Notes: a model not told the origin generated them from the sequence alone. A stretch of DNA of 52,389 bases from an uncultured Bauldia sp. (GCA_964441935.1 CAYTXI010000001.1:1-52389); one strand, 5' to 3'; positions 7,855 through 51,981 are shown, numbered from the stretch's first letter. Made by a program: numbers and translations.

Positions 7855-7861
7855 GCGGGCC

Positions 7862-12828: not shown

Positions 12829-13176
12829 ATGGGGCGCCTCACCACGCATGTATTGGACACCGCCTCCGGCAAGCCGGCGGAGGGCGTAACCGTTGAGTTG
12901 TATCGTGCCGACGACCCCACGGAACGCCTGGCCGTCGCCACGACCAACGCTGACGGGCGGGTCGACAAGCCGTTGCTGGAAGGCGAGGCGCTGACCGAGG
13001 GTGTGTACGAGTTGCGGTTCCACGCCGGCGACTATTGGCGTCGGTCGCTGGGTCTCGCCGAGCCCCCGTTCATCGACATCGTACCGATCCGCTTCGGCGT
13101 CGCCGCGGCCGACGAGAGCTACCACGTGCCGCTGATCCTGTCGCCGCACGGCTATGCCACCTACCGGGGCAGTTGA
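12829..13176 (+). CDS. uraH: 5-hydroxyisourate hydrolase (transthyretin-like)
   Basis: 115 aa. N-terminal LTTHVLDTASGKPA and the diagnostic C-terminal tetrapeptide YRGS. Its stop overlaps the xdhA start (TGATG). Confidence 0.9.
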   Translation: MGRLTTHVLDTASGKPAEGVTVELYRADDPTERLAVATTNADGRVDKPLLEGEALTEGVYELRFHAGDYWRRSLGLAEPPFIDIVPIRFGVAAADESYHVPLILSPHGYATYRGS

Positions 13177-14681
13177 TGCGTCAGACCATCCGCTTCATCC
13201 GCCACAACCGGCTGGTCGAGCTGGCCGACGTTCCCCCTACCATGCTGCTGCTCGACTACCTGCGGGAGAGCGAAGGCGCGACCGGCACCAAAGAGGGGTG
13301 CGGGGAGGGCGATTGCGGCGCCTGTACGGTGGCGCTCGGCCGCGTGCGTGACGGCAAGCTCGTATATGAACCGGTCAACGCCTGCATCCTGCTGCTTGGC
13401 CAGGTCGATGGCACCGAGGTGGTCACCGTCGAGGACCTGGCGGCAGATGACGGCACGCTGCATCCCGTGCAGCTCGCCATGGTCCAGAAGCACGCATCCC
13501 AGTGCGGCTTCTGCACGCCCGGGTTCGTCATGGCGTTGTTCGCGCTCTACCAATCGACCGATGGCGAGGTGACCCGCGCGGAGGTCAACGACTGGCTCGC
13601 TGGCAACCTCTGCCGCTGCACGGGTTATCGCCCGATCGTCGATGCGGGCATCGCCGCCTGCGCGGCGCCGCGCGGTGACCGCTTCCGCGCCGACGCCGAG
13701 GACACGGCCGGTGCGCTCGCGTTCCTGTCGGACTTAGAGGACGTGTTCGTGGGCGACGAGGAGCGCTTCTTCGCTGCGCCAGCGAGCCTCGATGGCCTCG
13801 CCGACCTCTACCTAGAGCACCCGGATGCGACCGTGGTCGCCGGCGCCACCGACGTCGGACTGTGGATCACCAAGCAGCTTCACGACCTCAAGAAGATTAT
13901 CCACGTCGGCAAGGTGCGCGATTTCGATACGATCGAAGACAACGGTCACGAGCTGGTCGTCGGCGCCGGGGCGACTTACGCGCAGGTTGAGCCCTATTTC
14001 GCCGAGATCGATCCCGACCTCGGCGAGCTCCTGCGCCGGCTGGGCTCCAAGCAGGTGCGCGCCTCCGGCACCGTCGGCGGCAACGTCGCCAACGGCTCAC
14101 CGATCGGCGACACCCCGCCGGCGTTGATCTCGCTGGGGGCCACCCTCCACCTACGCAAGGGCCAGCAAGTCCGCTCCATGCCGCTCGAGCAGTTCTTCAT
14201 CGATTACGGCAGGCAGGCGCGTGCTGCCGGCGAACTGGTCACCGCGATCACCGTTCCGCGCCTCGGTCCCGAGCACATCTTCCGTTGCTACAAGGTGACC
14301 AAGCGCTTCGATCAGGACATCTCCTCGGTGATGGGCGCCTTCCGCTTCACCGTCGATGAGGAAGACCGGGTCCGGGAGGCGAGGCTCGCCTATGGCGGCA
14401 TGGCCAAGACGCCGAAGCGCGCGTCGGGCGCCGAGAAGGCACTGGTCGGCACCGAAATCCGCGATTCGCGCGCCTGGAGTCGCGCCTTCGCCGCCCTTCG
14501 CCATGACTTCGCCCCCATCGACGATCACCGCGCGTCCCGCCGCTACCGCATCGAAACCGCCCACGCCCTCCTCGGAAAGGCGCTGATCGAGGCGTCGGGT
14601 ACTGCGACCGCGCGCACTCGCGTGGTCGGGCATCGCGAGCCGACCGTCGCCGGACCACTCGAGGCCGTGACCGATGAATGA
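13176..14681 (+). CDS. xdhA: Xanthine dehydrogenase small subunit (2Fe-2S + FAD-binding)
   Basis: Ferredoxin-type GCGEGDCGACTV and a second cluster motif CGFCTPGF, followed by an FAD-binding domain. The true ATG is at 13176; the track ORF starts upstream inside uraH. Confidence 0.9.
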   Translation: MRQTIRFIRHNRLVELADVPPTMLLLDYLRESEGATGTKEGCGEGDCGACTVALGRVRDGKLVYEPVNACILLLGQVDGTEVVTVEDLAADDGTLHPVQLAMVQKHASQCGFCTPGFVMALFALYQSTDGEVTRAEVNDWLAGNLCRCTGYRPIVDAGIAACAAPRGDRFRADAEDTAGALAFLSDLEDVFVGDEERFFAAPASLDGLADLYLEHPDATVVAGATDVGLWITKQLHDLKKIIHVGKVRDFDTIEDNGHELVVGAGATYAQVEPYFAEIDPDLGELLRRLGSKQVRASGTVGGNVANGSPIGDTPPALISLGATLHLRKGQQVRSMPLEQFFIDYGRQARAAGELVTAITVPRLGPEHIFRCYKVTKRFDQDISSVMGAFRFTVDEEDRVREARLAYGGMAKTPKRASGAEKALVGTEIRDSRAWSRAFAALRHDFAPIDDHRASRRYRIETAHALLGKALIEASGTATARTRVVGHREPTVAGPLEAVTDE

Positions 14682-17001
14682 GGTCACCCCCGGCCTGGCG
14701 GTCACCGAGCTTGCCGTCGTCGGCAAGGCCAGCGCCCACGACAGTGCCGTCAAGCACGTCACGGGCACCGCGACCTACGTCGACGACATACGTGCCCCGG
14801 CCGGTACGCTGCACCTCGCGCCGGGCCATGCGCCCATCACCGCCGGCCGCATTACCGGGCTCGACTTTGACCCGGTCATCGCCGCGCCCGGCGTGGTCGC
14901 GGTGCTGACCGCTGCCGACATCCCCGGCAGGAACGACATCAGCCCCAAGGAGATCGACGACGACCCGCTAATCGCCGAGGAGCAGATCATGTTCTACGGT
15001 CAGGTGCTGTTCGTCGTCGTTGCCGAGACCCGCGATCAGGCCCGGCGCGCGGCGCGCAAGGCGCGGGTGACTACGGCACCCACCATGCCGGTGATTGATG
15101 TCGACGACGCCATTGTCGCCGAGACAAAGATACATGCCGACCATACGTTCGAGCACGGCGAGACGATCGACGAGATGGAACGCTCGCCGAAGCGGGTGAC
15201 CGGCGAATTCCGCGTCGGCGGCCAGGAGCATTTCTACCTCGAAGGCCAGGTCGCTCTCGCCATCCCCGGCGAGGACGGCGACATGTTCGTGCAGTCGTCG
15301 ACACAGCACCCGAGCGAGGTGCAGCACATGGTGGCGCACGCGCTCGGCATCACCGACAACGCCGTCACCGTCGAAGTGCGGCGCATGGGTGGCGCCTTCG
15401 GTGGCAAGGAGAGCCAGGCGACGCAATGGGCGGTGCTGGCGGCGCTGGCGGCGTGGAAAACGGGGCGGCCGTGCAAGATCCGCCTCGATCGGGACGATGA
15501 CATGACCATGACCGGCAAGCGTCACGATTTCCGTGTCGACTATTCTGCCGGCTTCTCGCGCGAGGGCAGCTTGCGCTCGGTCGATGTCACGCTGTCGGCG
15601 CGCTGCGGGCACTCCGAAGATCTGACCCTGGGCGTGGTCGACCGCGCCATGTTCCACGCCGACAATGCCTACTACTATCCTTCGTGCCGCATCGTCTCTC
15701 GGCGGTTCCGCACCAACACCGTTTCCAACACGGCCTTCCGCGGATTCGGCGGGCCGCAGGGCATGCTCTTTGCCGAGCGCATGATGGATCAGATCGCCTA
15801 TGCCATCGGCCGCGATCCGCTGGATGTGCGCAAGGCCAATTTCTACGCCGGTGTCGGGCGCGACCGCACGCCCTACGGCATGCGGGTGGAAGACAACATC
15901 CTGCATGAGCTGGTCGGCGATCTGGAACGCACCAGCGACTACCGGACGCGGCGCGAGGAGTTGAGCGAGTTCAACGCCGCGAGCCCGGTGCTCAAGAAAG
16001 GACTGGCACTGACGCCGGTGAAGTTCGGTATCTCCTTCACCCTTATCCACCTCAACCAGGCCGGCGCCCTCGTCCACCTCTACCGCGACGGCTCGATCAG
16101 CCTCAATCACGGCGGCACGGAGATGGGGCAGGGGCTGTTCGTCAAGGTCGCCCAGGTGGTCGCCGAGGAGTTCGGCGTCGGCCTCGACAAGGTCAAGATA
16201 ACCGCCACCTCGACCGCCAAGGTACCGAACACCTCGCCGACCGCCGCATCGGCCGGCACGGACCTCAACGCTCAGGCGGCGCTGGTCGCCTGCCGGCAGA
16301 TCAAGGACCGCCTGTACGACTTCATCGAGGAGAAGTGGAGCGTACCGCGTGACCGGGTCGAATTCCGCAGCGGCGAGGTGCTGATCGGCAACCGCACGGT
16401 GCCCCTGGCGGACCTCGCCAGCGCCGCCCACGTCTCGCGCGTCCACCTATCCTCGGCCGGCTTCTACAAGACGCCGCTGATCCACTGGGATCGCGACAAA
16501 GTCACCGGGCGGCCGTTTTACTATTTCGCCTATGGTGCGGCCTGCTCGGAAGTCACGGTCGACACGACGACCGGCGAGATGCGCGTCGACCGCGTCGACA
16601 TCCTCCATGACGTCGGCAAGTCGCTCAATCCGGCCATCGACATCGGCCAGATCGAGGGCGGTTTCATCCAGGGCATGGGCTGGCTCACGACGGAAGAGCT
16701 GGTCTGGGATTCTGCCGGGCGGCTCCAGACCCACGCCCCTTCCACCTACAAGATCCCCACCGCGTCGGACGTGCCGGCCGACTTCCGCGTCGCCCTGTTC
16801 GAGTCGGGCGGCAACCGCGAGGAGTCCATCTTCCGCTCCAAGGCGGTCGGCGAGCCGCCGCTGATGCTGGCGATCTCCGTGTTCTCGGCAATCACCGACG
16901 CGATCCTCAGCCTCAAGCCGGCGGTGATGCCGCGGCTCGACGCGCCGGCGACGCCGGAGGCGATCATGCGCGCGGTCCGGGCCACCAGCGGAGGCGATTG
17001 A
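14674..17001 (+). CDS. xdhB: Xanthine dehydrogenase molybdopterin-binding subunit
   Basis: 775 aa with motifs GGAFGGKE, FRGFGGPQG and GQGLFVKVAQV typical of XdhB. Overlaps the xdhA stop by 8 nt. Confidence 0.95.
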   Translation: MNEVTPGLAVTELAVVGKASAHDSAVKHVTGTATYVDDIRAPAGTLHLAPGHAPITAGRITGLDFDPVIAAPGVVAVLTAADIPGRNDISPKEIDDDPLIAEEQIMFYGQVLFVVVAETRDQARRAARKARVTTAPTMPVIDVDDAIVAETKIHADHTFEHGETIDEMERSPKRVTGEFRVGGQEHFYLEGQVALAIPGEDGDMFVQSSTQHPSEVQHMVAHALGITDNAVTVEVRRMGGAFGGKESQATQWAVLAALAAWKTGRPCKIRLDRDDDMTMTGKRHDFRVDYSAGFSREGSLRSVDVTLSARCGHSEDLTLGVVDRAMFHADNAYYYPSCRIVSRRFRTNTVSNTAFRGFGGPQGMLFAERMMDQIAYAIGRDPLDVRKANFYAGVGRDRTPYGMRVEDNILHELVGDLERTSDYRTRREELSEFNAASPVLKKGLALTPVKFGISFTLIHLNQAGALVHLYRDGSISLNHGGTEMGQGLFVKVAQVVAEEFGVGLDKVKITATSTAKVPNTSPTAASAGTDLNAQAALVACRQIKDRLYDFIEEKWSVPRDRVEFRSGEVLIGNRTVPLADLASAAHVSRVHLSSAGFYKTPLIHWDRDKVTGRPFYYFAYGAACSEVTVDTTTGEMRVDRVDILHDVGKSLNPAIDIGQIEGGFIQGMGWLTTEELVWDSAGRLQTHAPSTYKIPTASDVPADFRVALFESGGNREESIFRSKAVGEPPLMLAISVFSAITDAILSLKPAVMPRLDAPATPEAIMRAVRATSGGD

Positions 17002-39834: not shown

Positions 39835-39924
39835 TGGCGGATGGGGTGGGATTCGAACCCACGAGACGGTTTCCCGCCTGCCGGTTTTCAAGACCGGTGC
39901 CTTCGACCACTCGGCCACCCATCC
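39835..39924 (-). tRNA. tRNA-Ser (anticodon UGA), class II with long variable arm, CCA encoded
   Basis: The reverse complement reads GGATGGG-TG-GCCGAGTGGTCGAAGGCA-C-CGGTCTTGAAAACCGG-CAGGCGGGAAACCGTCTC-GTGGGTTCGAATCCCAC-CCCATCC-G-CCA. The acceptor stem (7 bp), anticodon stem CCGGT/ACCGG with loop CTTGAAA, and T-arm GTGGG/CCCAC all pair. Confidence 0.9.
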
Positions 39925-40196
39925 GGCTCGGATTGTCAGTCACTTAGCAGGGCAGGGGAGTCGCTGAAAGGCGGAATTGCCCCGAATCGCCACCGCCAAC
40001 CCAAGCCGTTCGTTCCGATGATGTTCAAGGAGCAGTCGCTTCCTTCACGCGGCCGGCCGTGAGGAGCTCGGCGCGCTGGGTATGCACTACACCAGTACGC
40101 CGGACATTCTAAGGTGTTAAAGCCGCACTTTCTCGACAATCTCCGAGTGCGAATGGAGAACGCCGGCAACAACGCCCGCATGCTTCTTAGCCCGCG

Positions 40197-41339
40197 TCAC
40201 GCGGCCACCATATCATCGTGCTGTGCAGTCTGGGACGCCGATGACGCTTCGGTGGCGACGACCAGCAACCGCGCAGCGGAATCGAGGTCAAGGTGCTCAC
40301 GGATGGCACCCGCGAAAGGACCGCCGAAGGCTGCCAGAAGGCCGCCGGTTCCGGCAGCCCCGCTGATGCCCGTTTGAAGGCCACAGGCCCGTAGCTCGAC
40401 GGCCGCCGCTTCCGCCCACGAGTCCTCGATGGCGAGACAGCAACTGACCCCGGCGGCGAGAGTCGCATATGCGCTGAGCGACACGGTCCCACATTGGAGG
40501 CAACTCATCGCCGACACCTCACTTGCCGACACCGCGATCGGCTCTCCAGCGGCAAGCGCCGTGGTCACACAGGCGGCCGACTCTGGCTCGACTATGATGA
40601 CCCGCGGCGCACGGCCGCGCCGCGTGCGCCGGGCCCACTTTGTAGCGGCCGACGCCAGTCCGCCGACCCCGGCCTGAACCGACACCGCATCAATGCGGTC
40701 GTCTCCGGACAGCGCGAGCCGCTGCTCGACCTCGCCGAAGGCAGTCGAATAGCCGGCCGTCACCAGCCGAGGGACGATGTCGGAGGCCGAGCGGGCCGTG
40801 TCTGTAATGAGTACCGTGTCGGGGTCGCCCGCCGCCTCGATAGCGGCATCGACTGACGCGTCATAGACGCCGTCGATAACGGTCAGCTCGGCGCCCTCCG
40901 CCTCAATGGCCTCGCAGCGGCCCTTCGACACGAAGTTCGGCACGAAGATGCGCGCGTGGAGGTCGAGCCACCGTGCCACCCGCGCCACCGCGCGGCCGTG
41001 GTTGCCGTCGGTGGCGGCAATCAGCGTCAGCGGACGCAGCGGCGCGACCCAAGCCCGCAGCTTGTCGTAGGTGAGCGGGCCATCCGGGGCGGGACCGAGC
41101 CGCTCACGGAGCGCGGCATAGGTTGCCCATGATGCACCGAGAATCTTGAACGATGGCAGCCCGAAACGCGCAGTCTCATCCTTGACAAAGACCTTGGCAA
41201 CGCCGAGCCGCTCGGCGAGGTGCGGCGCCTCCAGCAACGGCGAGGGTCGGTAGTCCGGTAGGCGGCGATGGAAGTCGATCGGCCGGTCCGTGCTCGTCGT
41301 CTCCAGCGTTTCGAGTGGCTGCCTCAACAGGACGCGCAT
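40197..41339 (-). CDS. PLP-dependent enzyme of the diaminopropionate ammonia-lyase / threonine-dehydratase (fold type II) family
   Basis: 380 aa. HRRLPDYRPSPLLEAPHLAERLGVAKVFVKDETARFGLPSFKILGASWA contains the Schiff-base Lys context (KDE-x-x-RF-x-L-x-[AS]FK-x-LG) that I associate with DAP ammonia-lyase. ATDGNHGRAVA also fits. Starts 39 nt after the synthetase stop on the same strand. Confidence 0.7.
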   Translation of the reverse strand: MRVLLRQPLETLETTSTDRPIDFHRRLPDYRPSPLLEAPHLAERLGVAKVFVKDETARFGLPSFKILGASWATYAALRERLGPAPDGPLTYDKLRAWVAPLRPLTLIAATDGNHGRAVARVARWLDLHARIFVPNFVSKGRCEAIEAEGAELTVIDGVYDASVDAAIEAAGDPDTVLITDTARSASDIVPRLVTAGYSTAFGEVEQRLALSGDDRIDAVSVQAGVGGLASAATKWARRTRRGRAPRVIIVEPESAACVTTALAAGEPIAVSASEVSAMSCLQCGTVSLSAYATLAAGVSCCLAIEDSWAEAAAVELRACGLQTGISGAAGTGGLLAAFGGPFAGAIREHLDLDSAARLLVVATEASSASQTAQHDDMVAA

Positions 41340-41378
41340 GACGCAAACTCCATCCAGACCCCGGACGCCCTGCCTCGC

Positions 41379-44300
41379 CTACGCCGCACACGCCGGAGCA
41401 CGCGTCTCCGCGGCGTCCGGCCCCACATTCTTGAATGCCGTGCCACCGACCGCCTTTGCCGGATTGCCGCGCCACGTCGTGTTTGAATCGACGATCTCTC
41501 CCTTCATCAGGAAGGAATCGGTACCGAGCACGACGTAGTCTCCCATCGTCACGCCGTAGTGCACGTTCGACGCAACGCCCAGCGTGCAGCCCGTGCCGAT
41601 CTTCACGTAGTCGGATTTGAAGACGCCTTCCTCGAGCGAGTGCGGCTGCACCACGCATTCGGCGTTGACGTTCACGTAGTCGCCGACCTCGATCAGTGTG
41701 TACTCGTCGAAGTTGCTGCCGTCGTCGAAGCACTTCTTGCCGATCTTCACGCCCTGAAGACGCGAGATGATGGTGCGGAAGGGAGTTCCGTTGAAGAACG
41801 GCTCGATGAGCCACAGCCCGGTCAGCTTCCAGTGGCGCTCGTGGAACCAGAAATACTCATCGAGCAGCGAGACGACCTTGGGCGTCAGTCGGCCGAAGCG
41901 CAGCACGGACCGTTCGGCGAACCACAGCCAGAATATTCCGAAGAAGAGGGAGAATGCGGCGTAGGCGTAAACCCCGGCGATGCCGTACACGGGGTAGTAG
42001 ACCAGAGCCAGCAGCCCGGCGCACGTGCCGACAAAGAGCTGGAACCAGTTGGTGAGGAGGAACAGCGCCCCCGTCACGAGATTGTAGCGGTTCTTCGCGT
42101 GGAGTTGACGCTCGCGCGTCGCATCATCCATCTGCGCTAGCTCTAGGTCCCGGCTGGTAGCACGCGGAATCTCGAAGGCGGGGGAACCAAGCAGCCCGAC
42201 ATTCTCGCGAATCGGACCGTCGATGGGCACCAGCGCCTTGGTCCCAAGGAGAACGTTGGCGCCCATCTTGGAGTCGGCCGGGATGCGAACGTAGTTGCCC
42301 AGGTAGTTGTGCTCGCCGACCTTCACCGTGCTGACCTTGAAGGCCTCGTGCGACATCGTCTTGTTCATCATCTTCAGCCCCCCCGACACCATCGTCCCGG
42401 TGCCGATGTCGCACAGGAACGGATTGTCGTGGCGCTGATCCATGCCGAAGTTGGAGCCGGTCTGGATGATCGTGTTCAGGCGATAACCGATCCATCCCAG
42501 GTAATGGACGATGGCGGAACTGTCGCCGAAAAGCCGATTGTAGAAGACGGAGTTCGTCATCCCCGAAATCCACTGGTGGACGAAATGATGCCAGCCATAG
42601 AGGACGTAGGTCTTGTCCGTCTCCAGCAGTCTATTCAGCAGCCTTGCGATGAGGCTTATGGAAAGCAGAGCCAGCGGAACACCGATGAAGAACACGGTCA
42701 GCGTTGCCAGCAACGTCTCGCCGCCGAGAGCGAGCAGCGCGTTTGCTGGCGCGTCGTAGGGAAACTGTCCCACGATGAGCTCGTAGATATGCGGGAACAG
42801 CGCGTAGAGGATGATCACTGGGATCGGCGCCAGCACGAAGCCCGTGAGGATGAAGCTGGTCGGATAAGCCCAGCGACGGAAGGTGGAGCACGTCTTCGGC
42901 TCGATCACGCAATAGTCGGCGGTCGTCTCCTGGGCGGGGCATCCGTGGTAATGCTTGCCCTTGGGGATGCGCTGGCCGCTGTGTAGGGACGACGCGTGCC
43001 CAAGCTGGGTGTCGTCCTCCATCGTGGTGTCGATGTCGAGGATGCCGGCCTCGCCCACGAAGGCGTTGGAGCCGATCGTGACCGCGCCGGTGTGGATATA
43101 GTTCGACTGCGCTTTGTATCCCTGGAGGATTGCGTCCTTGCTGATCACCGTGTTCGCGCCGATCGAGATGAGATCGGTGCAGACGGGCATGGACTTGGCT
43201 TGGATCACCGTGTTCGCGCCGATCTTAGCGCCAAGAAGCCGAAGATAGAGGTTGTAGTAAGGGGCGCCGAAGCGAGCGATCGGCGCGCTGCGAACAAAAC
43301 CCCTGAGAGCCCAAAAGCGAAAGTAGCGAAGACTCCAGATCGGGATGACCTCCGGCTTCCACTTTCCGATCACCAGCCATTTCACGGCGAGCGGTACGAT
43401 CGTGGTGAGCACGAGGAGGGCGGCGGCGAGCATCTCAACGCGCAGGAAGACTGTGCCGTAGTCGGGCATCGCCGCGTAGGTCCAGCGGATCGAGGCGACG
43501 AAGACCCACACGCCGATGGCCATCCAACCGACATACCAGGCAAGCTGCAGCGCCCCGCAGCGGTAGTAATCGAGGTCGGAGGGAATGTGGAACGGTAGCG
43601 CCCCCTGCTCGCCTTCCTCCGACTCCTCCTCCGGCAGGAAATCGATGTGGCGGGCGAGCTTCTCGATCGTTGGGTTGAGGTAGATGTCCTGCATGGACAC
43701 GGCGGAGATGTTCAGCCGCCTGCGAATATCGGCGCTGAAGCGCGCCATAAGTAGCGAGTGGCCGCCAAGATCGGAGAAGAAGTTGTCCTCTACGGAGGCG
43801 CGCTCGATTCGCATGACCTCGATGAGGGCATCAGAAAGCGCCTTCTCGGTCGCTGTCCTCGGCGCAACGTACTTGCTGCTCGAAACCGATAGACGCGGCC
43901 CCGTCGGTGCCGGCAGATTCTTACGATCCGCCTTGTTGTTCGACGTCATCGGAATAAGCGGCAGCTCTTCGAGATAGGCGGGCACCATGTAGCCGGGGAG
44001 GCGACGGCGCAGCGTCTCCAGCACATCGCTCAGCGAGACGTACGGCGCTCCCTGTTTGCGCGTGAAGTAAGCCACCAGTTCAGTCGCGCCGGGCTCAGCT
44101 TCGTAAGGATTCGCGACTGCCTGTGAGATGTGCGGCAGTTCCAGAAGCACTGCCTCGATCTCCTCAAGCTCAACACGGTAGCCGCGGATCTTGATCTGGG
44201 TGTCGATGCGGCCGTGGAACTCGAGCTCGCCGTCTTCGCGGATGCGGCCAAGATCGCCCGTGCGGTAGATGCGCTTCGATGGATTGTTGGGGAGATCGAG

Positions 44301-45455
44301 AAAGTCGGAAATGAACTTCTGCTTAGTCAGCTCCTCGCGATTGAGGTAGCCGAGCGCGAGCCCGATGCCGGCGATGCCGATTTCACCAATCGCGCCGTGC
44401 TCGACGACCGCGTCCTTGTGCTCATCGAGGATCACCACCGTGTAGGTCGGCAGCGGCCGACCGATGGTGACTGGGCTTTCCGGCTCGAGCTTCCGCAACG
44501 TCGAGCTGACCGAGCACTCAGTTGGTCCGTAGGCGTTGAGAATCGTGCGCCCCGGACGGTGCCAGCGGACCACGAGATTGTGCGGTACCGCTTCGCCCGA
44601 CAGGAGCACGATGCGCACGTCCGGAAGGTCCGCTTCCAAAGTGGCCCAGAGTGTCGGCACGCAGGGCAGCACCGTCACCCGCTGCTCCCGCAGGAACGCA
44701 TGCAGATCGCCGCCGAACAACGTGCCACTCGACTTGCCGGCGATCAGCGTCGCACCGGAGATCAGCGGAACCCACAGATCCTCGACATGGAAGTCGAAGG
44801 CGAGCGTCATTCCCTGATAACAGCGGTCGTCCTCACGGACGCCGTAGACTTCTTTGGCGACCTTGACGAAGTTGCAGATGCCAGCGTGCTCGATCGCCAC
44901 GCCCTTGGGCTTGCCGGTCGTTCCGGACGTGTAGATGATGTAGAAGAGCCGGTCACTCGACGCCGGCTTTTCATCGAGTCTGAGTCGGGCCTCGGATCGC
45001 GCGCCGATCATCGGCTGGTCGAGGTCGACGAATATCCGCGGCACGTCGAACTCGGCAAGCTTGTCGCGGAACCGCGACACCGAGACGACGGCACTGATGC
45101 CCGCGTCCTCCAAAATGAACCCGATGCGATCCGCGGGAAAACCGGCGTCGAGCGGCACGTACGCAGCGCCGAGCTTCACGACTGCCAAAAGCGTCGTGTA
45201 GGCGTGCACCGACTTGTCGAACAGCAGCCCGACGCGGTCGCCCGGCTTCAGGCCCCGGCCGAGGAGGTGGCGCGCGACCTGATTGGCTTGGTTGTCCAGC
45301 TCGCGAAACGTGAGGGCGACGTTTTCGGCGACGATCGCCAGGTGATCGGCAGGCAGTTCGTCACAGCGTTGCTCAAACACTTGGTCGAGCCGTTCATCCT
45401 CGAGCCAACGAACTTCATTGTTGAAATCTGTACAGAGAAGAGGATTAGCGTGCAT
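41379..45455 (-). CDS. Pls/PosA-type single-module membrane NRPS (homopoly-amino-acid synthetase-like): A - T - [TM1 TM2 - LbH1] - [TM3 TM4 - LbH2] - [TM5 TM6 - LbH3]
   Basis: 1358 aa. Adenylation motifs: YIIYTSGTTGKPKGV (aa 173-187), FDFHVEDLW (220-228), NAYGPTE (307-313), YRTGDL (397-402), GRIDTQIKIRGYRVELEEIE (415-434), TSNNKADRK (504-512). Carrier motif FFSDLGGHSLL with Ser567 (nt 43755-43757). There is no condensation or thioesterase domain. Instead three pairs of hydrophobic helices (about aa 634-696, 862-938, 1124-1182) alternate with three hexapeptide-repeat-like soluble segments (about aa 735-835, 975-1095, 1215-1335, e.g. IGANTVIQAKSMPVCTDLISIGANTVISKDAIL). Confidence 0.85.
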   Translation of the reverse strand: MHANPLLCTDFNNEVRWLEDERLDQVFEQRCDELPADHLAIVAENVALTFRELDNQANQVARHLLGRGLKPGDRVGLLFDKSVHAYTTLLAVVKLGAAYVPLDAGFPADRIGFILEDAGISAVVSVSRFRDKLAEFDVPRIFVDLDQPMIGARSEARLRLDEKPASSDRLFYIIYTSGTTGKPKGVAIEHAGICNFVKVAKEVYGVREDDRCYQGMTLAFDFHVEDLWVPLISGATLIAGKSSGTLFGGDLHAFLREQRVTVLPCVPTLWATLEADLPDVRIVLLSGEAVPHNLVVRWHRPGRTILNAYGPTECSVSSTLRKLEPESPVTIGRPLPTYTVVILDEHKDAVVEHGAIGEIGIAGIGLALGYLNREELTKQKFISDFLDLPNNPSKRIYRTGDLGRIREDGELEFHGRIDTQIKIRGYRVELEEIEAVLLELPHISQAVANPYEAEPGATELVAYFTRKQGAPYVSLSDVLETLRRRLPGYMVPAYLEELPLIPMTSNNKADRKNLPAPTGPRLSVSSSKYVAPRTATEKALSDALIEVMRIERASVEDNFFSDLGGHSLLMARFSADIRRRLNISAVSMQDIYLNPTIEKLARHIDFLPEEESEEGEQGALPFHIPSDLDYYRCGALQLAWYVGWMAIGVWVFVASIRWTYAAMPDYGTVFLRVEMLAAALLVLTTIVPLAVKWLVIGKWKPEVIPIWSLRYFRFWALRGFVRSAPIARFGAPYYNLYLRLLGAKIGANTVIQAKSMPVCTDLISIGANTVISKDAILQGYKAQSNYIHTGAVTIGSNAFVGEAGILDIDTTMEDDTQLGHASSLHSGQRIPKGKHYHGCPAQETTADYCVIEPKTCSTFRRWAYPTSFILTGFVLAPIPVIILYALFPHIYELIVGQFPYDAPANALLALGGETLLATLTVFFIGVPLALLSISLIARLLNRLLETDKTYVLYGWHHFVHQWISGMTNSVFYNRLFGDSSAIVHYLGWIGYRLNTIIQTGSNFGMDQRHDNPFLCDIGTGTMVSGGLKMMNKTMSHEAFKVSTVKVGEHNYLGNYVRIPADSKMGANVLLGTKALVPIDGPIRENVGLLGSPAFEIPRATSRDLELAQMDDATRERQLHAKNRYNLVTGALFLLTNWFQLFVGTCAGLLALVYYPVYGIAGVYAYAAFSLFFGIFWLWFAERSVLRFGRLTPKVVSLLDEYFWFHERHWKLTGLWLIEPFFNGTPFRTIISRLQGVKIGKKCFDDGSNFDEYTLIEVGDYVNVNAECVVQPHSLEEGVFKSDYVKIGTGCTLGVASNVHYGVTMGDYVVLGTDSFLMKGEIVDSNTTWRGNPAKAVGGTAFKNVGPDAAETRAPACAA

Positions 45456-45837
45456 TTTAAGTATAAGTCCGCAATTTCACGCCCAAATAACCGATCGATA
45501 GGTCGCCGATCCAAACAATTCCACCGCCCGATCTGCGTCTGTACCCATCCCGCAGGTCATTCTCGGGAAGTGAGTTGCTTCGGCGGCGACCTCAGATCAC
45601 CTCGACCCTTTTGCGTTTAACCATGTTGAGTGTTCTTCGAACCGCGCCAGATTCTTCCGCTTTCGAAGTATTAATGAATGGTATAAAAGATGAGTCAACT
45701 AGACACGGAAGAACAAAGTAAAAATTTAACATTAACAACGGCGACTGTTTATGCAGGGCGGGATCCAGAACCGCGCCATGACCGAGTCGCTAGCGGCGAA
45801 AGCTGCCGTCCCGCAGAAAAGGGGTCAGCGTGAAACG
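45456..45837. promoter_or_regulatory. AT-rich divergent promoter region between the synthetase and the transaminase gene
   Basis: 382 nt. The stretch 45661-45750 (tttcgaagtattaatgaatggtataaaagatgagtcaactagacacggaagaacaaagtaaaaatttaacattaacaac) is far more AT-rich than anything in the flanking housekeeping DNA. A 7-bp inverted repeat cttcgaa (45635-45641) / ttcgaag (45662-45668) is present. Confidence 0.5.
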
Positions 45838-47211
45838 ATGTTCACAGACAGCATCTTTGCCCATCTCGAATCAGAGGTGCGTTCCTACGCCCGGACATTT
45901 CCATGCGTCATCGACCGGGCCCTTGGCGCCGAGCTCTGGACCGTGGATGGCCGCCGCTACTTGGATTTCCTGGCGGGCGCCGGATCTCTGAACTATGGGC
46001 ACAACAATCCGCGTCTGAAGAAGGCCCTCGTCGAGCACATCGAGCGCGACGGGATCACCCTTAGTCTCGATCTCCACACGACCGCCAAAGAGCGCTTCTT
46101 GGAGGCGCTGTCCGAGATCATCCTCGTACCACGCGGGCTCGACTACGTCGTCCAGTTCACCGGCCCGACCGGCACGAACGCGGTCGAAGCTGCGCTCAAG
46201 CTAGCGCGCAAGGCCACCGGACGCACCAACGTCATCTCGTTCACCAACGGTTTTCACGGTGTGTCGATGGGGGCCCTGGCCGCGACCGGCAACAGTTACA
46301 ACCGTGGCGGCGCCGGCATGCCGTTGTTCGGAACCACGGTGATGCCTTACGACGGCTATTTCGGACCGGAGGTCGACACGGTTGCATACATCGAGCGACT
46401 GATATCCGACCCGTCGAGCGGCGTCGATCATCCTGCGGCGATGATCGTCGAAACGGTGCAGGGGGAGGGCGGTCTCAATGTCGCGAGCAGCGGCTGGCTG
46501 CGGCGCATGGCAGCATTGTGCCGGGCTAAGGGCATCCTGCTCATCGTGGATGACATCCAGGCCGGTTGCGGCCGCACCGGCAGTTTCTTCAGCTTTGAGC
46601 CTGCGGGCATCACGCCCGACATCGTCACACTGTCGAAGTCGCTTTCCGGCTACGGACTGCCATTTGCAATCGTTCTGATCCGGCCCGACCTCGATGTCTG
46701 GAAACCGGGTGAGCACAACGGGACTTTCCGCGGCAACAACCATGCGTTCGTTACCGCCACCGCCGCCCTCGAACACTACTGGCGCACGTCGGACTTTGCC
46801 GACACGATCGAACGGACCGGCATTGCGGTCGGTCAGCAGCTTCAAGAGCTGGTCGACCGCTTTTCGCCAGATCTCGTGGAGGCCCGTGGCCGCGGAATGA
46901 TGCGTGGCATACGCTGCGCCGATCCGAAGCGGGCCGCCGCCGTGACGGCGCGTGCCTTTGAGCGTGGCCTAATCATCGAACGGTCCGGTCCCGAGGACGA
47001 GGTCATCAAGTGCCTTGCGCCATTGACGATCCATCGGAACGAGCTGATGGAGGGCCTTGGCATCCTCGAGTTGGCTATCGCGGAGGAGCTCGGGGTCCGC
47101 AGGCACGCAGACATCGCCGTGCGGCATTCGGCTGGATATCCGGCACCGAATGGTCACGGTGGCGAAGCTGTGCAGCGGATGGCGGCGAATTCGGCCGGGC
47201 AGGGGAGATAG
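45838..47211 (+). CDS. Diaminobutyrate--2-oxoglutarate transaminase (EctB/PvdH/Dat family)
   Basis: Near-colinear similarity to EctB as I recall it: [103 protein letters not shown] (PLP Lys) and NGTFRG. In-frame alternative starts are at 45751 and 45778. No ectA or ectC is in the window. Confidence 0.85.
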
Positions 47212-47276
47212 GACCAGAACCGCAAGGCGTCCGGCGCTGCCAGGGGACCCCGCTCTGACAGCGCAATTGCCCTGGG

Positions 47277-48035
47277 CTAACGCGGGCGTCCGTTCCGGTA
47301 GCGCTCGTTTGCGCCCGTCTTTACCCCGACGGTCCCTCGCTCCATCCGAGAACGGCCAACTGTCGCTGATTGCAGTGGTTCAATCGCGCCGCGGCTCTGT
47401 CTGACCGAGGTTGCCGCGGCAATAAAGCCACCACCGACTGTCCACCGCCCAATGGCAGTCACCTCCGCCCCCGGAGTAGATGACGCGTGAAGGTATGCCC
47501 AAAAAGTGCCGCCTCGATGCACTTTCACCGACACGTCCAGGAAGTCCAGCCAGTGGCGGGTGATGGGAAACCATGCCTTGAAAATCGCTTCCTTGGCGCA
47601 GAACAGGATCGTACCCCAATGCCGAGTGGGGTAAGCGTCCGCTAACGCCCGCAACTGATCTCGTTCCTCGCCCTGCACGATGAGGTCGAGCACTTCGGCG
47701 GGCAGTGCACGATCCGGCTCAGCGTCGACGCCGACGCTGCGTAGCGTCCGCGAGCGCGCGACGACGGCGGCGCGATAGCCGGTGCAATGGGTCATGCTCC
47801 CGACCACGCCGGCCGGCCAGCGCGGAGCCCCGTCCGCGTCGGGGAGAATTGGAACCGGTGGCACTCCGATCTCGCGCAGTGCTCGGCGGGCGCAATGGCG
47901 GACCGTGCCGAATTCGCGGCGACGTTCAGCAACGGCGCTGGCCACCATGGCGGCTTCGATCGCGAACATTGTTGACTCCGGAGCGTCAGAGAACATCTCG
48001 GAGCATGCGGCGGCCGGGAGCAGGGTCTCGATCAT
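47277..48035 (-). CDS. 4'-phosphopantetheinyl transferase, EntD/PptT type
   Basis: REFGTVRHCARRALREIG, WPAGVVGSMTHCTGYRAAVVA, VGVDAEP and LFCAKEAIFKAW are the EntD-type PPTase motifs. Confidence 0.8.
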   Translation of the reverse strand: MIETLLPAAACSEMFSDAPESTMFAIEAAMVASAVAERRREFGTVRHCARRALREIGVPPVPILPDADGAPRWPAGVVGSMTHCTGYRAAVVARSRTLRSVGVDAEPDRALPAEVLDLIVQGEERDQLRALADAYPTRHWGTILFCAKEAIFKAWFPITRHWLDFLDVSVKVHRGGTFWAYLHASSTPGAEVTAIGRWTVGGGFIAAATSVRQSRGAIEPLQSATVGRSRMERGTVGVKTGANERYRNGRPR

Positions 48036-48355: not shown

Positions 48356-48591
48356 ATCGACGAACGACCTGCCACAGCCCGCTTCGACCCAAAGCAGACA
48401 TCGTCGAAGGAATGGGCCATCAGTGAAAGATCAGCCCGTCGATCGTCACAAGTGAAGTTGCCGCGCGTCTGCTCGAATTAACCTTGACCACTCATGTACC
48501 GGGACAGTTCCGATTGCGCCGAAGTATTTTCGACGCCGTTGAAGTCTCGAGCACACCTGTCTCAAACGAGCAGGCCTGCGATGGTGAGTGG

Positions 48592-49005
48592 ATGAGGAAG
48601 ACAATGAAGATCAGCAGACTGTTGGTCCGCGTCGCTATTGCCTGCGGCTTGTCAGCCGTGTCCCTTGTGGCCACCCAAGTTGTCCTGCCGGCCGGACCGT
48701 TGGACACCATGGCTCACGCCGCGATAAGCGTCTGCGCGTGGAATGATCTGGACTGGGACGAAATGTCCGCGGACCAGCAGCAATCCTGGGCCGCGCTTGG
48801 ATGGGATGAAGACCGGTGGTACGGCGACGCCCCCGCACCGACGTCCGACAACAAGGATTGGTACGAGCTGAGCCCGAAGGAAAAAGCAGCCGCTGCGCGC
48901 CTGGGCTACGCATGGCGCACCTGGGACGTGGACACCTGTCCCGTTTCCGCCGACGACATAGAGCCGTTTGTGTACACGGGGTGTGAAGATTGCGCCGACG
49001 ATTGA
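48592..49005 (+). CDS. Hypothetical small secreted Trp-rich protein with an internal duplicated motif
   Basis: Signal peptide MRKTMKISRLLVRVAIACGLSAVSLVATQV. Two copies of a motif of about 23 aa: DWDEMSADQQQSWAALGWDEDRW and DWYELSPKEKAAAARLGYAWRTW. Start is 48592 or 48604. I recognise no family. Confidence 0.45.
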   Translation: MRKTMKISRLLVRVAIACGLSAVSLVATQVVLPAGPLDTMAHAAISVCAWNDLDWDEMSADQQQSWAALGWDEDRWYGDAPAPTSDNKDWYELSPKEKAAAARLGYAWRTWDVDTCPVSADDIEPFVYTGCEDCADD

Positions 49006-49265
49006 GCTTACAGCTCAAGTTTCCGACGCGAGGCGGATCTGATTGGATGGATACCTGGCTCGCTGGCGAGTGAGCGACGGTGGTCGGTTGTGACGAACTG
49101 TGAATGGCAGCTCTTGGCGCTGAGCGGACATCGTTCAGCGACACGCTAAGGGTCGCTCCTGATCCGAACAAGATGCTCGCCGAACGGCACACAGTCCCTC
49201 GGCTCGTAGAAAACAGCCGGGCAGCGCGGCTGCCGGCAATGGCGCCTTGACGCTCTTCCCGCGAT

Positions 49266-49282
49266 TTGTCCAAATGGATCAA
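49266..49282 (+). promoter_or_regulatory. Imperfect palindrome TTGTCCAAATGGATCAA upstream of preT (RutR/TetR-like operator candidate)
   Basis: Located 27-43 nt upstream of the preT ATG (49309). It resembles the RutR consensus TTGACCA-NN-TGGTCAA as I recall it, but has one mismatch and one extra base. Confidence 0.3.
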
Positions 49283-49308: not shown

Positions 49309-50664
49309 ATGGCGGTCGACAGGGTGCCTGATATCGCCGCCGGGCGTTTGAATCAGGAAGACTACGTCGCCAATTTCAGCGACCTCCACCCGCCGCTCGA
49401 TCGCCATCAGGCCACGGTCGAGGCCGACCGCTGCTATTTCTGCTTCGACGCGCCGTGCGTCGCCGCTTGCCCGACCGGGATCGACATCCCGATGTTCATC
49501 CGCGAGATCCTGACCGACAACCCCAAGGGCGCGGCCGAGACGATCCTGTCTGCCAACATCCTCGGGGGTATGTGCGCGCGGGTCTGCCCGACCGAAACCC
49601 TCTGCGAGGAGGCGTGCGTGCGCCAGGCGGCCGAGGGCAAACCCGTGCGGATCGGCGGGCTCCAACGCTACGCCACTGATGCCCTCATGGCCGAAGGCAA
49701 GCAGCCCTTCGTGCGCGCCGCGCGGACCGGCCGTCGCGTCGCGGTCGTCGGCGGCGGTCCGGCCGGCCTCTCGTGCGCCCACCGCCTCGCCACGCATGGC
49801 CACGACGTCGTTATCTACGATGCCCGGCCGAAGATCGGCGGTCTCAACGAATACGGCATCGCGGCTTACAAGACGGTCGACGATTTCGCTCAGGCCGAGG
49901 TCGATTTCATCCTGTCGATTGGCGGTATTACGGTCGAAGCCGGCAAACAGCTGGGCCGCGACTTCACCCTCGCCGAGCTTCGCGAGGACTTCGACGCCGT
50001 GTTCCTGGGCATGGGCCTGACCGGAGTCAACGCCCTCGGCCTTGTCGGAGAGCAGGTCGCCGGAGTCTTTGACGCGGTCGCCTACATCGCCGAATTGCGG
50101 CAGGCCGAGGACCTTGCGACGCTGCCGGTCGGCCGCAAGGTGGTTGTCGTCGGCGGCGGCATGACCGCCATCGACATTGCCTCGCAATCGAAACGACTCG
50201 GCGCCGAGGACGTCACCATTGTCTACCGCCGCGACGCTGCCCGCATGGGCGCCAGCGAGTACGAGCAGGAGCTCGCCCAGACGAGCGGCGTCAAGATCAA
50301 GCACGGCGCCATGCCGAGGCGGCTGGTTTCATCGGGCGGCGCCGTGGTCGCGGTCGAGTTCGAGTACACCGCCGCCGTCGACGGCTCGCTATCCGGCACC
50401 GGCGAGACTTTCGTGGTCGAGGCCGACGCGGTGTTCAAGGCGATAGGGCAGACGTTCGTCACGGCCGCGCTCGACGGCGCCGACGGGATGATTGAGCTGG
50501 ACTCCGGACGCATCAAGGTCGACGAGGAGCGACGCACCACGCTTGCGGGCGTCTGGGCGGGCGGCGATTGCATCGCCGGTGGCAAGGACCTCACCGTCGT
50601 GGCCGTCGAGGACGGCAAGATCGCCGCCGAATCGATCCACCGCGCGCTATCGGGCTCATCTTGA
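49309..50664 (+). CDS. preT: NAD-dependent dihydropyrimidine dehydrogenase subunit PreT (GltD-like)
   Basis: 451 aa. N-terminal 4Fe-4S Cys motifs (CYFCFDAPCVAACP, CARVCPTETLCEEAC) and two dinucleotide folds (VAVVGGGPAGLSCA, VVVVGGGMTAID). Confidence 0.9.
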   Translation: MAVDRVPDIAAGRLNQEDYVANFSDLHPPLDRHQATVEADRCYFCFDAPCVAACPTGIDIPMFIREILTDNPKGAAETILSANILGGMCARVCPTETLCEEACVRQAAEGKPVRIGGLQRYATDALMAEGKQPFVRAARTGRRVAVVGGGPAGLSCAHRLATHGHDVVIYDARPKIGGLNEYGIAAYKTVDDFAQAEVDFILSIGGITVEAGKQLGRDFTLAELREDFDAVFLGMGLTGVNALGLVGEQVAGVFDAVAYIAELRQAEDLATLPVGRKVVVVGGGMTAIDIASQSKRLGAEDVTIVYRRDAARMGASEYEQELAQTSGVKIKHGAMPRRLVSSGGAVVAVEFEYTAAVDGSLSGTGETFVVEADAVFKAIGQTFVTAALDGADGMIELDSGRIKVDEERRTTLAGVWAGGDCIAGGKDLTVVAVEDGKIAAESIHRALSGSS

Positions 50665-50676
50665 GAGGAAACGTCG

Positions 50677-51981
50677 ATGGCCGATCTCCGTTCCGAATTC
50701 GTCGGCATCAAGTCGCCGAACCCCTTCTGGCTCGCCTCGGCCCCGCCGACCGACAAGGAATACAACGTCGTCCGCGCCTTCAAAGCGGGCTGGGGCGGCG
50801 TCGTCTGGAAGACCCTCGGCGAGGACCCGCCGATCGTCAACGTCGCCGGACCGCGCTATGGCGCCATCCACGCCGGCGATCGCCGGCTGATTGGCCTTAA
50901 CAACATTGAGCTGATCACCGACCGCCCGCTCGAGGTGAACCTCAACGAGATCAAGCAGGTCAAGCGCGACTGGCCCGACCGCGCGCTCGTCGTCTCGCTG
51001 ATGGTTCCCTGCGAGGAGCCCAACTGGAAGGCGATTCTAAAGGCGGTCGAGGACACCGGTGCAGACGGTGTCGAGCTCAACTTCGGATGCCCCCACGGTA
51101 TGAGCGAGCGTGGCATGGGCTCTGCAGTCGGCCAAGTGCCCGAGTACATCGAAATGGTCACTCGTTGGTGCAAGGCCGGCACCCGCATGCCGGTCATCGT
51201 CAAGCTGACGCCGAACATCACCGACATCCGCTACCCCGCGCGCGCCGCCAAGCAAGGTGGCGCCGACGCGGTGTCGCTGATCAACACTCTCAACTCGATC
51301 ACAAATGTCGACCTCGACACGTTTTCGCCCGAGCCGTCGATCGACGGCAAGGGCTCGCACGGTGGCTATTGCGGCCCGGCGGTCAAGCCCATCGCGCTCT
51401 CCATGGTGTCCGAGATCGCCCGCGACAAGGAAGCCGGAGGCATATCCATCTCCGGCATCGGCGGCATCACCACGTGGCGCGACGCCGCCGAGTTTCTGGC
51501 GCTCGGGGCCGTCAACGTCCAGGTTTGCACGGCGGTCATGACCTACGGATTCAAGATCGTCGGTGAACTGATCTCGGGGCTGGACCACTACCTCGATGAG
51601 CGTCAGATGAAACTCAACGACCTCGTCGGCCGTGCCGTGCCCAACGTCACCGACTGGCAGTACCTCAACCTCAATTACGTCACCAAGGCGCGCATCAACC
51701 AGGATCTGTGCATCGAGTGCGGTCGTTGCCACATCGTTTGCGAGGACGCCTCCCATCAGGCGATCACCGCCACCAAGAACGGCCGCCGACACTTCGAGGT
51801 GGTCGACGCCGAGTGTGTCGGCTGCAACCTCTGCGTCAACGTCTGTCCGGTCGAAAACTGCATCACAATGGAGCGCCTCACCGCCGGCGTCGATCCACAC
51901 ACCGGCGCGCCGGCAACGGGCCATCTCAACTGGACCCAACACCCCAACAACCCCATGCGCGTGTCAGAGCCGGCGGAGTAG
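50677..51981 (+). CDS. preA: NAD-dependent dihydropyrimidine dehydrogenase subunit PreA (DHOD-like TIM barrel + 2x4Fe-4S)
   Basis: 434 aa. GIKSPNPFWLASAPPT, ELNFGCPHGM and VKLTPNITDI, plus a C-terminal ferredoxin-like CIECGRCHIVC ... CVGCNLCVNVCP. Confidence 0.9.
   Translation: MADLRSEFVGIKSPNPFWLASAPPTDKEYNVVRAFKAGWGGVVWKTLGEDPPIVNVAGPRYGAIHAGDRRLIGLNNIELITDRPLEVNLNEIKQVKRDWPDRALVVSLMVPCEEPNWKAILKAVEDTGADGVELNFGCPHGMSERGMGSAVGQVPEYIEMVTRWCKAGTRMPVIVKLTPNITDIRYPARAAKQGGADAVSLINTLNSITNVDLDTFSPEPSIDGKGSHGGYCGPAVKPIALSMVSEIARDKEAGGISISGIGGITTWRDAAEFLALGAVNVQVCTAVMTYGFKIVGELISGLDHYLDERQMKLNDLVGRAVPNVTDWQYLNLNYVTKARINQDLCIECGRCHIVCEDASHQAITATKNGRRHFEVVDAECVGCNLCVNVCPVENCITMERLTAGVDPHTGAPATGHLNWTQHPNNPMRVSEPAE

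Follow-up and report, generated by a model that had tools for sequence, protein, structure and literature searches.

A Pls/PosA-type synthetase cluster of probable poly-diaminobutyrate type with a diaminopropionate ammonia-lyase-like partner in an uncultured Bauldia sp.

The 52,389-nt stretch of DNA from an uncultured Bauldia sp. analyzed here (CAYTXI010000001.1:1-52389, referred to as the window) carries between positions 40197 and 48035 a cluster of four genes, encoding a single-module nonribosomal peptide synthetase (NRPS) of the Pls/PosA family, a pyridoxal 5'-phosphate (PLP) enzyme of the diaminopropionate ammonia-lyase (DAPAL) family, an EctB-type transaminase and a 4'-phosphopantetheinyl transferase (PPTase). 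The synthetase and the PLP enzyme form a conserved, discrete and co-evolving module across Alphaproteobacteria, Gammaproteobacteria and Actinomycetota, and the reciprocal exclusivity of the two partners is clear. We consider it very probable that the cluster is of the poly-2,4-diaminobutyrate (poly-Dab) type. The complete proposal, that the cluster makes a cationic Dab homopolymer and that the DAPAL-family enzyme serves as a PLP-dependent Dab racemase, is more tentative, and we assign it a probability of roughly 0.4.

All four open reading frames (ORFs) of the initial annotation were found where it had placed them, and those of its suggested checks that are open to computation gave the results it had anticipated. 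It had also regarded the gene combination, especially the DAPAL-like partner, as not characterized in alphaproteobacteria. The new element is limited to this partner and its sub-clade, as a Pls-like synthetase together with an EctB-type enzyme has been characterized in actinomycetes as PddA/PddC (PMC8225329). The poly-D-Dab cluster of Streptoalloteichus hindustanus consists of the synthetase PddA, the DapF-like cofactor-independent Dab racemase PddB, which is translationally coupled, the EctB-type transaminase PddC and the aspartate kinase PddD (Yamanaka et al. 2020; PMC8225329), and Patel and Gulick 2023 (PMC10522769) had mentioned uncharacterized alphaproteobacterial homologues of Pls. The cluster type is therefore known, and the new part is the sub-clade together with the DAPAL-family enzyme that it has recruited. 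A literature search revealed no work on Pls-type synthetases that have a DAPAL-like partner.

Conservation of the synthetase and PLP enzyme pair

The DAPAL-like gene (40197-41339, minus strand, 380 aa) starts exactly 39 nt behind the stop codon of the synthetase gene (41379-45455, minus strand), as the initial annotation had described, and the spacer at 41340-41378 on the same strand forms the presumed operon junction and contains a GGAG sequence 9 nt upstream of the ATG. In related loci the junction ranges from a 16-nt overlap up to approximately 150 nt. A scan with one genome per species returned more than 550 synthetase relatives with the motif AFDF[HS]VE[DE], and the best 80 loci were examined. 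An adenylation code with Pro at position 278 and Ser at position 331 (P278/S331, described below) occurred in only four of the 80 (L001, L002, L005 from Kocuria dechangensis, and L062), and a DAPAL-like gene was found behind the synthetase gene in exactly the same four. Approximately 70 of the 120 closest synthetase clusters at 90% identity also carry the P278/S331 code, and in four of these that were viewed in context a PALP gene was directly downstream in L081, L082 and L083 and absent in L084. Among the P278/S331 synthetases found, that of L084 (contig of P0010) alone lacks a DAPAL-like gene, and transposase and integrase fragments within 5 kb suggest that the locus has been rearranged.

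The association was also approached from the side of the PLP enzyme. Three DAPAL-like matches that were not linked a priori to a synthetase (L086 from Skermanella aerolata, L087 and L088) are all located directly behind a P278/S331 synthetase gene. When metagenomes were scanned with the alignment of the DAPAL-like proteins, this gave three loci with at least 66% identity, all with a synthetase gene upstream, and 77 loci with 40-50% identity, none of which (0/77) has a Pls-type neighbor. All six loci of the DAPAL clade that were found through the DAPAL-like protein thus sit behind a P278/S331 synthetase. In total the DAPAL-like gene is directly downstream in 13 of the 14 P278/S331 loci with a readable code (the window, L001, L002, L005, L062, L081-L083, L086-L088, L092 and L093), and L091 also has the pair, with a synthetase whose N-terminus is cut off so that the code cannot be read. 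None of the other 76 Dab-type synthetase loci has a DAPAL-like gene, giving a Fisher p of approximately 1e-15 that is uncorrected for phylogeny and obtained from loci that are not phylogenetically independent. At least 24 further synthetase/PLP-enzyme pairs are indicated by longest contigs of identical length in both homologue tables. Clustering of the library at 50% identity left a single full-length representative of the linked clade, with 527 bits, and the next matches, with 331 and 288 bits, came from unrelated contexts.

It could be argued that the four genes of the window are neighbors by chance, with an EctB-like gene serving ectoine or siderophore metabolism and a lyase serving catabolism, and genes for purine and pyrimidine catabolism are indeed present elsewhere in the window. 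This explanation is already contradicted by the recurrence of the synteny, which the initial annotation had proposed to check, in Alphaproteobacteria, Gammaproteobacteria and Actinomycetota: all four genes are together in L087 and L088, and the synthetase/DAPAL-like pair is near-invariant in the sub-clade. The identities of the two proteins track each other between loci, and neither ectA nor ectC is found with the EctB-type gene. We regard a chance arrangement as extremely improbable.

Biosynthetic pathways may have recruited DAPAL-family enzymes repeatedly. The gene for the nearest relative outside the clade, P0242 with 51% identity (L089, 2746-3840), shares its operon with genes for a TauD-type dioxygenase and a GT4 glycosyltransferase, and at two other DAPAL-family loci, L118 and L138, a generic AMP-binding enzyme is encoded 2-3 kb downstream.

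The synthetase and its predicted monomer

The synthetase of 1358 aa was assigned from matches to TIGR02353 and TIGR01733 (407 bits for the latter), hydropathy, internal repeats and homologues. Its adenylation domain (aa 27-508; 43932-45377, minus strand; Pfam and alignment) comprises AMP-binding (PF00501, aa 27-371) and AMP-binding_C (PF13193, aa 432-508), and is followed by a carrier (thiolation) domain detected by Pfam as PP-binding (aa 539-604; 43644-43841, minus strand) with the phosphopantetheine-attachment serine in GGHS. No condensation or thioesterase domain was matched in the protein with Pfam or NCBIfam, in agreement with the single-module NRPS originally described. The terminal polymerization region (aa 633-1333; 41457-43559, minus strand; TIGR02353 and hydropathy) gave 604.2 bits against a cut-off of 423.1 with the "Pls/PosA family NRPS" model TIGR02353 and covered model positions 2-695 of 695, and the membership of the synthetase in this family is confirmed. 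Homologues number in thousands, and the named ones carry the Pls/PosA family annotation.

A Kyte-Doolittle scan placed the hydrophobic segments of the terminal region in three pairs (approximately 635-656/670-695, 865-890/908-940 and 1131-1152/1156-1180), corresponding to six helices and three soluble domains and to the topology of three two-helix units that had been predicted. The soluble stretches are mutually related (C1 against C3 with 26% identity and E=8.5e-12, C2 against C3 with E=1.9e-5). The hexapeptide repeats ascribed to them gave a weak signal, PF00132 reaching 32 bits over the whole protein with no single stretch passing alone, and a PDB sequence search with the C-terminal region returned only marginal hexapeptide-transferase matches, so that no homologue of solved structure was identified by sequence. 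In the first soluble domain a repeated IGANTVI is encoded by a perfect direct repeat of 22 nt with copies 60 nt apart (43143-43164 and 43203-43224). Among the Dab-type Pls homologues, P0058 (2123 aa) has Pfam matches to HAMP, GAF, HisKA and HATPase and is an apparent sensor-kinase fusion, and those of L013, L034 and L038 lie within long ORFs, such ORFs being approximately 2100-2400 aa; these cases may represent true fusions or read-through.

The order of an adenylation domain, a carrier domain and three repeats of two transmembrane helices plus a soluble domain, the match to TIGR02353 and the recognition residues Asp235/Glu239 are shared with Pls from Streptomyces albulus and PosA from Acinetobacter baumannii. 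Common to this family is an iterative isopeptide polymerization that proceeds without condensation or thioesterase domains, and the same is predicted for the window synthetase. After adenylating Dab and loading it as a thioester, the membrane synthetase would use the three tandem C-terminal domains to join the monomers iteratively through the side-chain amine to a gamma-linked polycation, which would leave the cell like the products of Pls, PddA and PosA. Alternatively, no free polymer may be formed at all, if one or a few Dab residues are attached to an acceptor in the membrane or envelope and modify the envelope charge, or if the synthetase is inactive under natural conditions. Genes for an exporter, a chain-length factor or a degrading enzyme are absent from the window, the products of PosA are only 7-12-mers, and a posA knockout has a phenotype in biofilm, all of which would fit such a role. 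Every characterized TIGR02353 member, on the other hand, releases homo-oligomers or polymers (PMC10522769, PMC8225329), and the full three-domain terminal region is intact in the window synthetase and conserved among its homologues. We therefore consider this alternative quite improbable.

For assignment of the monomer the ten Stachelhaus positions were mapped by register to GrsA-PheA and subsequently by multiple alignment, giving D221, F222, E225, P264, L284, S286, A308, V316, S317 and K508, or DFEPLSAVSK. The mapping is considered sound, since several other loci, when read at the same columns, have DFECLSAVTK, the code published for an experimentally characterized gamma-poly-L-Dab synthetase. 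Eight of ten positions equal this L-Dab code DFECLSAVTK of Streptomyces celluloflavus, and eight of ten equal the D-Dab code DFECLSCVSK of PddA, compared to five of ten for the diaminopropionate (Dap) code DFEYVGTVTK and fewer still for the codes of ornithine (DMEHNGTVSK, PosA), lysine (DAESIGTVVK, Pls) and beta-lysine (DGESVSVVNK). The residues for diamino-acid recognition are present as Asp at code position 1 (D221) and Glu at code position 3 (E225), which in the PosA structures bind the alpha- and side-chain amines. Pro at position 278 is absent from both reference Dab codes (pattern DFECLS[AC]V[TS]K). In a neighbor-joining tree of the 80 synthetases the P278/S331 clade is monophyletic and nested among enzymes of the DFE[CA]LSAVTK type, from which it differs by the pocket changes C278P, T331S, FDFS to FDFH and TE(T/A)T to TECS (TECSVS). 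Apart from these changes the window synthetase resembles the gamma-poly-L-Dab synthetase of S. celluloflavus (BCD58482.1) in its architecture, and its clade is nested among synthetases with the code of that enzyme. The monomers and codes of Pls and PosA are different, and the adenylation domain of PosA is distant (268 bits).

The third gene supports the same monomer. The EctB-type transaminase (45751-47211, plus strand, 486 aa) scored 642 bits with TIGR02407 (cut-off 552) and would, as an L-2,4-diaminobutyrate:2-oxoglutarate transaminase, convert aspartate semialdehyde to L-Dab. Its neighbors are the divergent synthetase gene and the convergent PPTase gene, so that, as stated in the initial annotation, this is no ectABC locus. 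Among the best 80 loci an EctB-like gene adjoins the synthetase gene in approximately 60, and an aspartate kinase gene is also present in 37, all actinobacterial, so that a synthetase combined with a Dab supply is widespread. The code, the placement in the tree and the adjacent EctB-type gene together make 2,4-diaminobutyrate the best-supported monomer, and the poly-diaminobutyrate that had been named as the most plausible product thus has an adenylation code of the diaminobutyrate type behind it, the polymer itself being predicted.

The unusual pocket leaves room for another interpretation, where the synthetase polymerizes a different diamino acid that is made or remodeled by the PLP enzyme, either Dap, with serine or phosphoserine as the substrate of a beta-replacement, or a Dab isomer rearranged by threonine-synthase-like beta,gamma chemistry, and the product would be a new cationic homopolymer. 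The code is unlike every characterized one at position 278 and in the neighboring residues (FDFH, TECSVS), the PLP enzymes of the clade have invariant changes within DAPAL active-site motifs (DTAR and MSVLQCG, see below), beta-replacement and beta,gamma-replacement are established chemistry for fold-type II enzymes, and in about half of the clade loci no EctB gene is adjacent. Against this interpretation, positions 299, 301 and 322 of the code are those of Dab and not of Dap, the clade branches from within the Dab-type synthetases, an EctB gene does adjoin the synthetase in the window and seven other clade loci, and such chemistry is without precedent in the DAPAL family. It appears improbable to us, if less so than the attachment of Dab to an envelope acceptor.

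The PLP enzyme and the proposed pathway

As mentioned above the product of the DAPAL-like gene belongs to the fold-type II PLP enzymes, an assignment made with Pfam and NCBIfam, alignments and comparison of a structure model. It has the PALP fold, and the best models are those for diaminopropionate ammonia-lyase (EC 4.3.1.15): NF006058 gave 272.2 bits (cut-off 276), TIGR03528 207.6 bits (cut-off 532) and TIGR01747 194 bits (cut-off 274). None of the cut-offs was passed, NF006058 being missed just narrowly, and the family assignment made originally is retained. The identity to the E. coli and Salmonella enzymes (YgeX/DpaL and STM1002; PDB 4D9G and 5YGR) is 28-30%, and the AlphaFold model has a DAPAL-like fold with a TM-score of 0.72.

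In an alignment of 114 clade members with 115 other family members, K65 (the Schiff-base lysine), D111 in the TDGNHG loop, D180 and a pair of cysteines were invariant in the clade. We take K65, D111 and D180 to be the equivalents of Lys77, Asp120 and Asp189 in DAPAL, with D111 as the second catalytic base. For Lys77 and Asp120 we follow, in part, the catalytic roles described in a paper that cites the original work. Set against this conservation are a number of residues that are invariant or near-invariant in the clade and different elsewhere: DTAR replaces DT[SA]W..Y and introduces R183, a Trp is inserted at position 235, MSVLQCG replaces MAGLNCG and introduces V280 and Q282, and F291 is found where others have Trp, in addition to F136 and W97. 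The window protein itself departs from the clade consensus with Cys280 and Tyr291. Since the catalytic residues are kept and other residues have changed throughout the clade, catalysis has probably been retained and the specificity changed. The clade differs from DAPAL also in its context, which is biosynthetic and not catabolic.

Such an enzyme could act as a racemase for Dab. DAPAL acts on both enantiomers of Dap, and its two bases (Lys and Asp) are located on opposite faces of the PLP. Dab has no beta leaving group, so that the quinonoid could only be reprotonated, and racemization would be the natural outcome. Serine racemases are among the next structural neighbors (TM-score approximately 0.6) and share the fold class and a two-base mechanism; their second base presumably belongs to the xxGNHG loop, where it would occupy the place that Asp120 has in DAPAL and D111 in the window enzyme. 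The identity to serine racemase is below 20%, however, the second base is a Ser there and an Asp here, and the likeness in fold says nothing about a shared function. A racemase would also fit the position of the gene directly behind the synthetase gene, like pddB, the covariation of the adenylation pocket with the PLP gene, and the S331 that is common to the window synthetase and the D-Dab-specific PddA.

In the pathway that we propose, the PPTase would convert the carrier domain of the synthetase to the holo form, and the DAPAL-family enzyme, presumably co-transcribed with the synthetase, would carry out a dedicated processing of the L-Dab from the transaminase, most likely as a PLP-dependent Dab racemase that feeds D-Dab to a synthetase with a co-evolved pocket (C278P, T331S, FDFH and TECSVS). 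It would thereby take the role of the unrelated cofactor-independent PddB in Streptoalloteichus. The window cluster resembles PddA-PddD in having a Pls-type membrane synthetase with a Dab code of the F-E type and S331, an EctB-type supply of L-Dab, and a gene for a small enzyme directly behind the synthetase gene. It differs in that this gene encodes a fold-type II PLP enzyme of the DAPAL family instead of a DapF-like racemase, in having P278/A322 where PddA has C278/C322, in the lack of a pathway-specific aspartate kinase, in the inclusion of a PPTase and in the proteobacterial host.

Several observations weigh against this proposal. We know of no racemase in the DAPAL family, every residue needed for ordinary Dap deamination is retained, and the clade members straddle the NF006058 cut-off (272-287 against 276), so the enzyme could be a plain DAPAL. 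It is not obvious why an invariant extra Arg (R183) near an active-site motif should serve the binding of a second amine. The AlphaFold model is poor in the clade-specific regions, with a predicted local distance difference test (pLDDT) score below 50 at residues 181-187 and 252-304, and the residues there cannot be placed. An EctB gene is adjacent in just 8 of the 15 clade loci (the window and seven others), and unlike in the actinomycete clusters no aspartate kinase was found among the ORFs scanned beside the window cluster. Finally, S331 was rejected as a clean marker of D-specificity, because L025 (DFECLSVVSK) and L085 from Nitrobacter (DFEALSAVSK) carry it without an adjacent racemase-like gene.

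A gene for a serine hydrolase of PF00144, the family of class C beta-lactamases, DD-peptidases and D-aminopeptidases, adjoins or follows the PLP gene in seven of the clade loci. It is located at 15309-16532 in L001, at 7751-8788 and 8946-10196 in L002 (two copies), at 12351-13799 in L081, at 12282-12866 in L083, at 9216-10523 in L086, at 9134-10297 in L087 and at 9182-10474 in L088. The hydrolase, presumably exported, combines a signal-like N-terminus with an SxxK motif (SVSKT), and neither the window nor any of the other Dab-type loci has a gene for it. Because the family includes DD-peptidases and D-aminopeptidases, the hydrolase may be a polymer-specific, possibly D-specific, peptidase.

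The same hydrolase can be accommodated if the product is gamma-poly-L-Dab and the PLP enzyme a genuine ammonia-lyase, which would either clear Dap or an excess of diamino acid, ensuring a clean homopolymer and avoiding toxicity, or catabolize monomers that the hydrolase recycles. The conservation of all DAPAL catalytic residues and both cysteines and the scores at the DAPAL equivalog cut-off speak for this explanation, and a misactivation of Dap is conceivable, since Phe at code position 2 is common to Dap- and Dab-activating domains. It gives no reason why only this sub-clade should need the enzyme when 76 other Dab-type loci do without it, and the covariation of the adenylation pocket with the PLP gene is left unexplained. 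Moreover, Dap is no general metabolite, DAPAL chemistry is unable to deaminate Dab by beta-elimination, and the window lacks the hydrolase gene that the recycling would depend upon. An ammonia-lyase function is in our judgment unlikely, but it has to be taken more seriously than a new monomer. The name "diaminopropionate ammonia-lyase" that these genes receive in automatic annotation probably misleads.

Surroundings of the cluster and significance

The PPTase gene (47277-48035, minus strand, 252 aa) is convergent with the transaminase gene and encodes the domains 4PPT_N and ACPS. The scores were 210 and 184 bits for PptT and Npt (cut-offs 365 and 370) and 50.6 bits for EntD (cut-off 169). The enzyme is of the Sfp type, by score nearer to PptT/Npt than to EntD and an equivalog of no named one, so that the "EntD-type" label is correct in the broad Sfp/EntD sense and not for EntD itself. 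It had also been called a dedicated PPTase that completes the set. The gene is present in the cluster, and also clustered with the synthetase gene in L083, L087, L088 and six other loci, but overall this clustering is sporadic.

Between the divergent synthetase and transaminase genes lies an AT-rich region of 295 nt (45456-45750, GC content approximately 0.52), which is presumed to be a bidirectional promoter region. No sigma-70 consensus match was found in it, and scans of the cluster for promoters, terminators and Rfam families gave nothing. The flanking genes are unrelated to the cluster, with tRNA-Ser, an SRPBCC protein, LemA and DUF2207 on one side and PreT/PreA on the other. The GC content is 0.59-0.64 from the synthetase to the PPTase (41.4-49.2 kb), compared to approximately 0.66-0.70 in the flanks, and a tRNA-Ser(TGA) gene is located at 39835-39924 on the minus strand, 272 nt past the DAPAL-like gene. 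A horizontal acquisition of the cluster is only hinted at by the GC dip and the tRNA gene. We do not claim a genomic island, since neither tRNA-derived or att-like direct repeats nor an integrase-like ORF was found around the cluster, which is on the 5' side of the tRNA.

Small ORFs at 39936-40181 and 48484-49282 were not counted as parts of the cluster because of a poor coding signal and the lack of homologues in related loci. In the ORF at 48484-49005 (plus strand), which gave no family match, a segment resembling a signal peptide (MKISRLLVRVAIACGLSAVSLVA...) comes after an internal start; the ORF may encode a small secreted protein or be non-coding. Genes for xanthine dehydrogenase (XdhA/XdhB) and dihydropyrimidine dehydrogenase (PreT/PreA), at 13035-17001 and 49309-51981, respectively, mark the contig as chromosomal, with many genes for the catabolism of purines and pyrimidines. 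PreA falls into one 90%-identity cluster with a protein from a Bauldia sp. MAG, in keeping with an origin in Hyphomicrobiales.

Cationic homopoly(amino acid)s are sold as antimicrobials, epsilon-polylysine being one example, and of the only approximately seven natural types described nearly all come from actinomycetes. The locus described here belongs to a sizeable uncharacterized sub-family from soil and aquatic Proteobacteria and Kocuria. We give just short of even odds to the joint view that the clade represents either a new fold-type II PLP-dependent Dab racemase that is independent of PddB, leading to gamma-poly-D-Dab in Proteobacteria and some Actinomycetota, or an enzyme making a new monomer, and that in either case the PF00144 hydrolase would be the matching peptidase, possibly a D-stereospecific one. 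If true, the altered adenylation pocket co-evolving with a recruited PLP enzyme would represent a second, mechanistically unrelated supply of D-Dab, or a new monomer.

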